Positions 46,723 to 46,773 of a stretch of 64,000 bases of DNA are shown here, in pieces; position 1 is the first letter of the stretch, and each line of letters begins with the position of its first letter. The DNA is taken from the sequence record PQ765507. One strand, written 5' to 3'. The translations under genes were made by a program, and so were the position numbers. Below the pieces are notes generated by a model that worked only from the letters and a program-made list of their open reading frames with translations, ran no database searches and was not told the DNA's origin. Origin of the DNA: Escherichia phage 212.

Positions 46723-46773
46723 CCGTAGAACCGATTATGCTTTTATTTATAACACTGTATAATGGTTCTACGG
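46723..46773. repeat. 10-bp perfect inverted repeat flanking the orphan promoter
   Basis: CCGTAGAACC at 46723-46732 and GGTTCTACGG at 46764-46773. Confidence 0.7.
46735..46763 (+). promoter_or_regulatory. orphan MotA-type middle promoter, antisense to gp18
   Basis: ATGCTTTTA (TGCTT at 46738-46742) and TATAAT at 46758-46763; no + strand ORF downstream. Confidence 0.45.

Follow-up and report, generated by a model that had tools for sequence, protein, structure and literature searches.

A genus-conserved palindromic cassette between tail genes 18 and 19 of Gaprivervirus phages appears to join a late promoter to an orphan middle promoter antisense to the tail sheath gene

The 204-nt spacer between the tail sheath gene 18 and the tail tube gene 19 of Escherichia phage 212 houses a palindrome together with an orphan promoter on the opposite strand to both genes. 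From our analysis of a 64,000-nt stretch of this genome (record PQ765507, hereafter the window), the element appears to be a composite, genus-conserved cassette made up of the hairpin that follows gene 18, a late promoter (TATAAATA) in the loop of that hairpin and an orphan middle promoter on the + strand. We infer that the latter is probably a real MotA-type middle promoter, active from a start near A46770. As to its role, we tentatively prefer to see the cassette as an orphan middle promoter acting by transcription itself, with an R-loop as the foremost way of doing so; an origin-like function in the strict sense is possible but more doubtful.

A 1.8-kb query around the element matched Escherichia phage vB_EcoM_VR20 at 99.1% identity and about 30 other Gaprivervirus genomes, including VR7, VR25, SP18 and RZ, at 93-99% identity; by sequence similarity, the window belongs to a VR20-like Gaprivervirus. 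Its + strand is the strand of early and middle genes and carries uvsY and rnlB. Whole genomes of VR20 (KP007360) and T4 (NC_000866) were assembled from annotated records and scanned for the promoter motif; a literature search on Gaprivervirus promoters returned no paper. A separate feature of this genome is that gene 24 (capsid vertex) is present as two tandem paralogs at about 37720-40284 on the minus strand (VR20 105854-108418, annotated there as capsid vertex proteins I and II), T4 having one. The features on which the analysis turns are the following.

46113-46604, minus strand: gene 19, tail tube protein, 99% identical to annotated VR20
46657-46664, minus strand: proximal late promoter TATAAATA for gene 19, with an equivalent in T4
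46723-46773, no strand assigned: palindromic cassette with arms CCGTAGAACC (46723-46732) and GGTTCTACGG (46764-46773)
46735-46744, plus strand: Mot box TTATGCTTTT, TGCTT at 46738-46742, centred near -30
46744-46751, minus strand: TATAAATA in the loop of the hairpin, the distal late promoter of gene 19 and, in VR26, of 19.1; its T4 equivalent lies next to the hairpin there
46758-46763, plus strand: -10 hexamer TATAAT, 13 nt after the Mot box
46764-46775, plus strand: subclass box GGTTCTACGGTT, -6 to +6, with GGTTCTA at 46764-46770
46809-48788, minus strand: gene 18, tail sheath protein, 99% identical to annotated VR20
31600-31634, plus strand: PuvsY, paralogous middle promoter, TAATGCTTTA-N12-TATAATGGTTCTAGACCC, positional equivalent of T4 oriF
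36578-36613, plus strand: PrnlB, paralogous middle promoter, TTTTGCTTCA-N13-TATAATGGTTCTAGACCCC

Read on the + strand, the element has the makeup of a canonical MotA-type middle promoter (Mot box, 13-nt spacer and TATAAT) and points into the minus-strand gene 18, both as proposed in the initial annotation, whose three occurrences of a Mot box with TATAAT and GGTTCTA in the window were likewise recovered where it had placed them. The Mot box TTATGCTTTT agrees at nine of ten positions with the consensus, given as (a/t)3TGCTTtA and also as (a/t)(a/t)(a/t)TGCTT(t/c)A (PMC1524935), the GCTT core being intact and the mismatch falling on the last position. TATAAT, with its 13-nt spacer, fits a sigma-70-type -10 of the form TAnnnT placed 11-13 nt after a Mot box with no -35, and a scan for sigma-70 -35/-10 pairs did not report the 46758 site. 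Transcription is predicted to start at A46770, because the mapped start of T4 PuvsY (115371; PMC2988021) falls 7 nt after its -10. The 13-mer TATAATGGTTCTA, which contains the hexamer, occurs exactly three times in the window, each time on the + strand (31622, 36601 and 46758); with up to two mismatches allowed, ten matches were found against 2.1 expected, a number reached in 0 of 100 shuffles. Sites of the form TGCTT-N13-16-TATAAT number four against 0.26 expected over 64 kb and both strands (four being reached in 0 of 100 shuffles), three of them being the uvsY, rnlB and 18/19 sites, and the chance expectation for such a site in a 200-nt spacer is roughly 0.001. The genes for MotA and AsiA lie outside the window and are annotated in the 99% identical VR20. 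VR20 promoters at the positions of T4 PuvsY, P34i, PnrdC.7 and P49.1 retain (T/C)GCTT with unchanged spacing; against MotA dependence, the VR20 MotA is only 33% identical to that of T4 (E 3e-35). A 44-aa ORF (46650-46784, plus strand) spans the element from a start upstream of the promoter; several related records (UPEC07, P8 and pEC-M719-6WT.2) list it as a "hypothetical protein", and it is probably spurious.

The other two copies of the identical 13-mer precede genes: uvsY and rnlB lie downstream on the + strand, in agreement with the initial annotation, and the uvsY copy has the same position as T4 PuvsY/oriF, the equivalence drawn there. GGTTCTA is part of a longer box from about -6 to +6 (GGTYCTARGNCC in VR20, G(A/G)(A/G)TCTAAGTCC in T4), which by sequence marks a subclass of Mot-box middle promoters that crosses genera. 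We rejected GGTTCTA as a signature of origins, the box being found also on the gene-driving promoters PrnlB, PnrdC.7 and Pcd.3. VR20 holds at least five copies of the 13-mer TATAATGGTTCTA. The members of the family, and the more loosely related P34i, are as follows.

Gene-driving members: PuvsY, PrnlB, PnrdC.7 and Pcd.3 in VR20; PuvsY and PnrdC.7 in T4
-10 ending at VR20 11029 and T4 11890, plus strand: srd/modA-as orphan, in the srd/modA spacer, antisense to modA
-10 ending at VR20 75167 and T4 75993, plus strand: 3/2-as orphan, in the spacer between genes 3 and 2, reading genes 2 and 4 in antisense
-10 ending at VR20 99375, minus strand: 18/19-as orphan, the present element, with no T4 counterpart
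-10 ending at VR20 151631 and T4 153018, minus strand: P34i orphan, with a looser box, annotated as oriG in T4

T4 and VR20 thus have three other orphan antisense MotA-type promoters in common (srd/modA-as, 3/2-as and 34i), and the 18/19 element is, as far as sequence tells, a genus-specific fourth member of an otherwise conserved set. When pairwise scores were used to look for a duplication source of the 18/19 copy, srd/modA-as and PuvsY came out equally close. The T4 sites at 11890 (+) and 75993 (+) are absent from a 2010 table of about 60 identified T4 middle promoters (PMC2988021). A comparison of 3/2 spacers (L217-L231, with T4 as L216:1468-1520) found the 3/2-as promoter (TATAATGGTYYTAGGTC) kept in at least five T4-like groups (T4, Gaprivervirus, Dhakavirus and two IMG/VR groups), usually with a hairpin; in two of these loci, L228 and L229, a stem-loop lies directly upstream of the Mot box, which is the PmSL layout discussed below. 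The Dhakavirus 18/19 spacer (L015:1312-1420) contains a paralog of the 3/2 cassette of the same genome (L222), both copies containing TATAATGGTYYTAGGTC and ending in CTGGGATAATAGATTA; the 18/19 copy forms a long hairpin of -30 kcal/mol and has a degenerate Mot box. Among the matches listed for the 14-mer GTATAATGGTTCTA in an IMG/VR scan, most were chance occurrences in unrelated contigs. Near the rnlB promoter, a promoter-like sequence TATAGTGGGTCTA (36654-36666, plus strand) lies 53 nt past the -10 and has no Mot box. The promoter core is bordered by a short direct repeat, (G)ACC(C)TTT, both at PrnlB (36563-36570 and 36614-36622) and at VR20 3/2-as (75120-75190), with one copy upstream of the Mot box and another at about +4; it may be due to chance or be the trace of a cassette insertion.

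Downstream of the 18/19 promoter the + strand holds no credible ORF, and the description of this copy in the initial annotation as one without a gene of its own stands: all that was found is a 21-aa ORF opening with ATG and a 75-aa ORF opening with TTG, both devoid of a Shine-Dalgarno sequence. A hidden gene was rejected on the grounds that these two ORFs lack a ribosome binding site and that a third ORF, of 255 aa (47136-47903, plus strand), is a codon-aligned shadow of gene 18; gene 18 has seven TTA, CTA or TCA codons in 660, and an equivalent antisense ORF is absent from T4. A known RNA family or small RNA was rejected as well, for a search of window positions 46000-49000 against Rfam gave no match at E<=1, the predicted transcript from +1 to +131 folds no better than its shuffles (z -0.1), and a scan downstream of the promoter revealed no convincing terminator.

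The 10-bp perfect inverted repeat reported by the initial annotation around the promoter was found as described, its arms CCGTAGAACC and GGTTCTACGG being complementary at 10 of 10 positions across 31 intervening nucleotides. The stem is prolonged inward by ATTAT/ATAAT, and the -10 hexamer is thus part of it. Folded as RNA, the palindrome reaches -20.0 kcal/mol on the minus strand (z -3.9 against shuffles) and -25.9 kcal/mol on the + strand (z -6.1), and DNA parameters gave similar results. It folds into a hairpin at the 3' end of gene 18 transcripts and is, by sequence comparison, the local version of one that T4-like phages carry just after gene 18, a hairpin 3' of this gene being seen in the T4-like loci examined. 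In T4 the hairpin (GGCCTG..CAGGCC) directly follows gene 18, TATAAATA comes next and a second TATAAATA lies near gene 19, with no antisense Mot-box promoter at this locus. The minus-strand sequence that the initial annotation saw overlapped by the + strand promoter is indeed there, as TATAAATA between the Mot box and the -10 (46744-46751). It is not incidental: late promoters carry TATAAATA at -13 to -6 upstream of late genes (consensus from PMC1524935), two copies, both conserved, lie upstream of gene 19, and the one in the loop is the distal member of this pair, arranged as in T4. The GC-rich hairpin plus U tract of an intrinsic terminator was not found, the minus strand continuing as GCUCCUGUGG and the + strand as UUUCUAAC, and the terminator scan did not report the palindrome. 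Covariation cannot be scored for the hairpin, its arms never varying in 11 aligned Gaprivervirus sequences; VR7-type phages pair ATGC/GCAT in place of ATTAT/ATAAT in the inner stem, which is suggestive only. In two loci of another T4-like group (L034 and L072), a late promoter, TATTTATA, lies within the post-gene-18 hairpin GCCGATATA..TATATCGGC; the nesting of promoters in this hairpin is thus not unique to Gaprivervirus. The hairpin and the distal late promoter are accordingly ordinary furniture of this spacer, and the + strand middle promoter is its special feature, since the T4 spacer has a hairpin and late promoters but no antisense Mot-box promoter.

The element was found in all 33 Gaprivervirus records of the phage collection, in full in 31 of them, and is annotated in none. 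Across an alignment of 11 Gaprivervirus genomes, variable columns make up 8% of the element compared with 73% of the left flank (22 columns) and 71% of the right flank (34 columns), and the arms, TGCTT, TATTTATA and TATAAT are invariant, although invariance among such close relatives may in part reflect a short divergence time. The more telling case is VR26, whose homology to the window is confined to the 36 nt TTATGCTTTTATTTATAACACGGTATAATGGGTCTA, from the Mot box through about +3, and breaks against the other genomes exactly at the edges of this core. Within it VR26 keeps TGCTT, the spacing, TATAAT and GG.TCTA; both flanks are lost, the arms are gone, a different GC hairpin adjoins gene 18, and the spacer as read holds a single TATAAATA between gene 18 and 19.1. 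The palindrome and the promoter can therefore occur apart, as separate modules, and the retention of TATAAT, which is needed neither by the late promoter nor by the VR26 hairpin, is the chief ground on which we take the + strand promoter to be under selection. The spacer also receives genes, absent from the window, at two positions relative to the element.

L001:1501-2106 (VR7), strand opposite to the promoter: 19.1, 201 aa, between the element and gene 18; also in RZ and DCP80
L211:711-1394 (VR26), strand opposite to the promoter: relative of 19.1, 227 aa, between the element and gene 19

These proteins share 35% identity and membership of phrog_5104, have an HNH-like motif and gave weak matches to endonucleases. 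Judged by these sequences, the 18/19 spacer is a repeated landing site for HNH-like, mobile endonuclease-like genes.

What lies downstream of the promoter differs among relatives: VR20-type phages have gene 18 there, VR7-type phages have 19.1, and VR26 has a hairpin followed by gene 18, so that in VR7-like phages the first ~600 nt of the transcript are antisense to an unrelated HNH gene. Since the promoter is conserved but the sequence it transcribes is not, we infer that the act of transcription matters rather than the sequence of the RNA, and the context in VR7-like phages leads us to favour R-loop priming of the oriG kind over a specific antisense RNA. In the mechanism that we tentatively propose, the cassette would supply on the minus strand the gene 18 hairpin and the distal TATAAATA late promoter for gene 19, while on the + strand a MotA/AsiA-dependent middle promoter would fire during the middle period from about A46770. 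Its product would be a non-coding transcript antisense into gene 18, and the RNA-DNA hybrid (R-loop) so formed would open or prime the DNA within the late-gene cluster, much as P34i does at T4 oriG. The variable downstream sequence fits a sequence-independent role of this type: R-loop formation at T4 oriF is independent of specific sequence and the downstream stretch can be exchanged, a middle promoter followed by an easily melted stretch being sufficient at oriG and oriF (PMC3016281). Early T4 DNA synthesis, moreover, mostly begins in late-gene regions (PMC3016281).

Whether the promoter would also act as an origin is a narrower matter, and one on which we lean towards doubt. R-loop origins are defined by a middle-mode promoter within a minimal origin of about 100 bp (PMC3016281), and a promoter of this description is present, by sequence, in the 18/19 element. 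The first 60 nt of the transcribed region are unremarkable, with 65% A+T (genome mean 60 +/- 7%) and 45% purine. The RNA:DNA hybrid over these 60 nt is predicted to fall a little short of the duplex in stability (+0.06 kcal per step, compared with -0.04 at T4 oriF/oriG), and 21% of random genome windows equal the least stable 40-bp window downstream, a measure without discriminating power given that T4 oriF (25%) and oriG (22%) score alike. Nearest-neighbour energies were dropped as a test of R-loop or DNA-unwinding propensity for this reason, the validated T4 origins not being separated from background. Because the subclass box is found on ordinary gene promoters too, membership of the family says nothing about origin function. 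Plasmid screens in T4 reportedly recovered only ori(uvsY) and ori(34), which would point to some orphan middle promoters not being origins.

An unlikely alternative is that the promoter adjusts when genes 18 and 19 are expressed, or in what proportion, either through an antisense RNA to the 3' part of the tail sheath message or through collision or occlusion of RNA polymerases. Its geometry would suit such a role, for it faces gene 18 head-on and shares DNA with the distal late promoter, whose position between the Mot box and the -10 makes simultaneous occupancy of the two promoters impossible. Analogues point the same way: in Dhakavirus and Marfa-like phages an antisense TATAAT is wrapped in a long hairpin right after gene 18, with a near-consensus Mot box in the Marfa-like phages (TTGCTAAA-N13-TATAAT) and a degenerate one in Dhakavirus, and similar orphan promoters stand right after gene 2 in the five or more T4-like groups that keep 3/2-as. 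When the 18/19 spacers of 65 T4-like loci were scanned for a relaxed Mot box, 10 sense and 7 antisense matches came out, after which only exact or near-exact cases were used. Against control of gene 18 by a dedicated RNA, the transcript of VR7-like phages would first run ~600 nt through the unrelated HNH gene, which argues that a gene-18-specific antisense RNA is not what is conserved, and neither a terminator nor a structured small RNA is detectable downstream (+1 to +131, z -0.1). Besides, T4 middle promoters are shut off as late transcription takes over, at odds with a part in the expression of tail genes. Of the suggestion made in the initial annotation that an antisense RNA regulates tail genes, the antisense orientation accordingly holds good and the regulation is weakened by the HNH context of VR7-like phages.

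We attach a similarly low probability to the cassette being a mobile module or a relic akin to PmSL, in which a PuvsY-type copy would have landed in a spacer visited by homing endonucleases and would now serve as a recombination joint or persist as neutral baggage, its transcript without function. PeSL, and PmSL with its TGCTT Mot box, are modular exchange points near indels in T4-like genomes (PMC4122927), and the element resembles them in being genome-repeated and indel-associated: VR20 has at least five copies of the 13-mer, HNH-like 19.1 genes have entered on one side of the core in VR7 and on the other in VR26, and VR26 homology ends exactly at the edges of the 36-nt core. Invading endonucleases are also said to be able to bring in promoters that make antisense transcripts (PMC2988022). 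The 19.1 genes, however, lie on the other strand and are not driven by the + strand promoter; no relative has a + strand gene at the site; and the element is nearly invariant in every Gaprivervirus genome, including those without 19.1. Nor is the architecture that of PmSL, in which a stem-loop immediately upstream of the Mot-box promoter is combined with a downstream Shine-Dalgarno sequence and start codon: here the stem-loop encloses the promoter with its two arms, and no start codon or ORF with a ribosome binding site is found at the 3' end.

A broader proposal builds on the transcription-based reading that we prefer: all orphan antisense PuvsY-type promoters (srd/modA-as, 3/2-as and 34i in T4 and VR20, together with 18/19-as) would be dedicated primer or R-loop promoters, that is, unrecognised origins or fork-loading sites, with the -6 to +6 box favouring hybrid formation or primer processing and Gaprivervirus having gained an extra origin at the end of gene 18; this we consider quite unlikely. 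Least probable of all is a + strand match without function that arose only because the late promoter and the gene 18 hairpin are themselves constrained. In its favour, both TATTTATA and the arms serve purposes on the minus strand, the stem takes up the -10 hexamer by pairing it with ATTAT, the Mot box departs from consensus at its last position, and the unvarying arms leave covariation unscorable. Against it, VR26 lacks this hairpin and yet keeps TGCTT, the spacing, TATAAT and GG.TCTA, the 13-mer and its spacing are the same as in the promoters before uvsY and rnlB, and chance would yield only ~0.26 such sites per 64 kb on both strands, or ~0.001 per 200-nt spacer.

The 18/19 element and the T4 orphans at 11890 (+) and 75993 (+) offer short, delimited test cases for open questions of T4 replication and transcription, being promoters related in sequence to two validated origin promoters. 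Should they prove active without being origins, each would mark a defined point from which antisense RNA is made across late genes. In genome annotation, the element accounts for the probably spurious 44-aa "hypothetical protein" of several Gaprivervirus records.

Among known systems, T4 PuvsY/oriF, a model MotA/AsiA promoter and R-loop origin (PMC2988021, PMC3016281), and its Gaprivervirus ortholog are closest to the 18/19 element in sequence, with the same Mot box spacing and an identical TATAATGGTTCTA. PuvsY, however, drives uvsY, whereas no gene follows the 18/19 element, which is embedded in a palindrome and departs from the PuvsY sequence at +2 and beyond. The nearest counterpart in arrangement is T4 P34i (oriG/ori(34)), which is likewise of MotA type, has no gene of its own and reads a late structural gene in antisense; in each of the two, TATAAT is followed by a GG discriminator, the VR20 ortholog of P34i reading TATAATGGTCCCAGAGCG where T4 has TATAATGGTCCCAGAGAG. 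Unlike the 18/19 element, P34i lies within a coding region and has no hairpin or overlapping late promoter, and its downstream box is only loosely similar; its origin activity has been demonstrated experimentally. On the minus-strand side, the T4 late promoters nested in hairpins (I-TevI, soc, e, 25 and 26; PMC2988022) also have TATAAATA inside the hairpin, with the consequence that transcripts initiated upstream hold the whole hairpin and those from the late promoter only its 3' arm. In contrast to these, the hairpin here lies about 115 nt upstream of the gene 19 start codon (46723 to 46604), and no sequestration is therefore apparent. PeSL and PmSL (Arbiol 2010; Comeau 2014, PMC4122927) are, like the 18/19 cassette, small modules of hairpin and promoter that are repeated in the genome and lie beside indels, PmSL consisting of a TGCTT Mot box and a -10; but theirs is a stem-loop just upstream of the promoter, followed by a Shine-Dalgarno sequence and a start codon, while in the 18/19 cassette the arms enclose the promoter, no gene follows, and the whole is set in the conserved block of structural genes, pointing towards its neighbours. 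T4 oriG already offers an instance of an orphan antisense MotA-type promoter, and what is new is its fusion with the gene 18 hairpin and a late promoter in one cassette.
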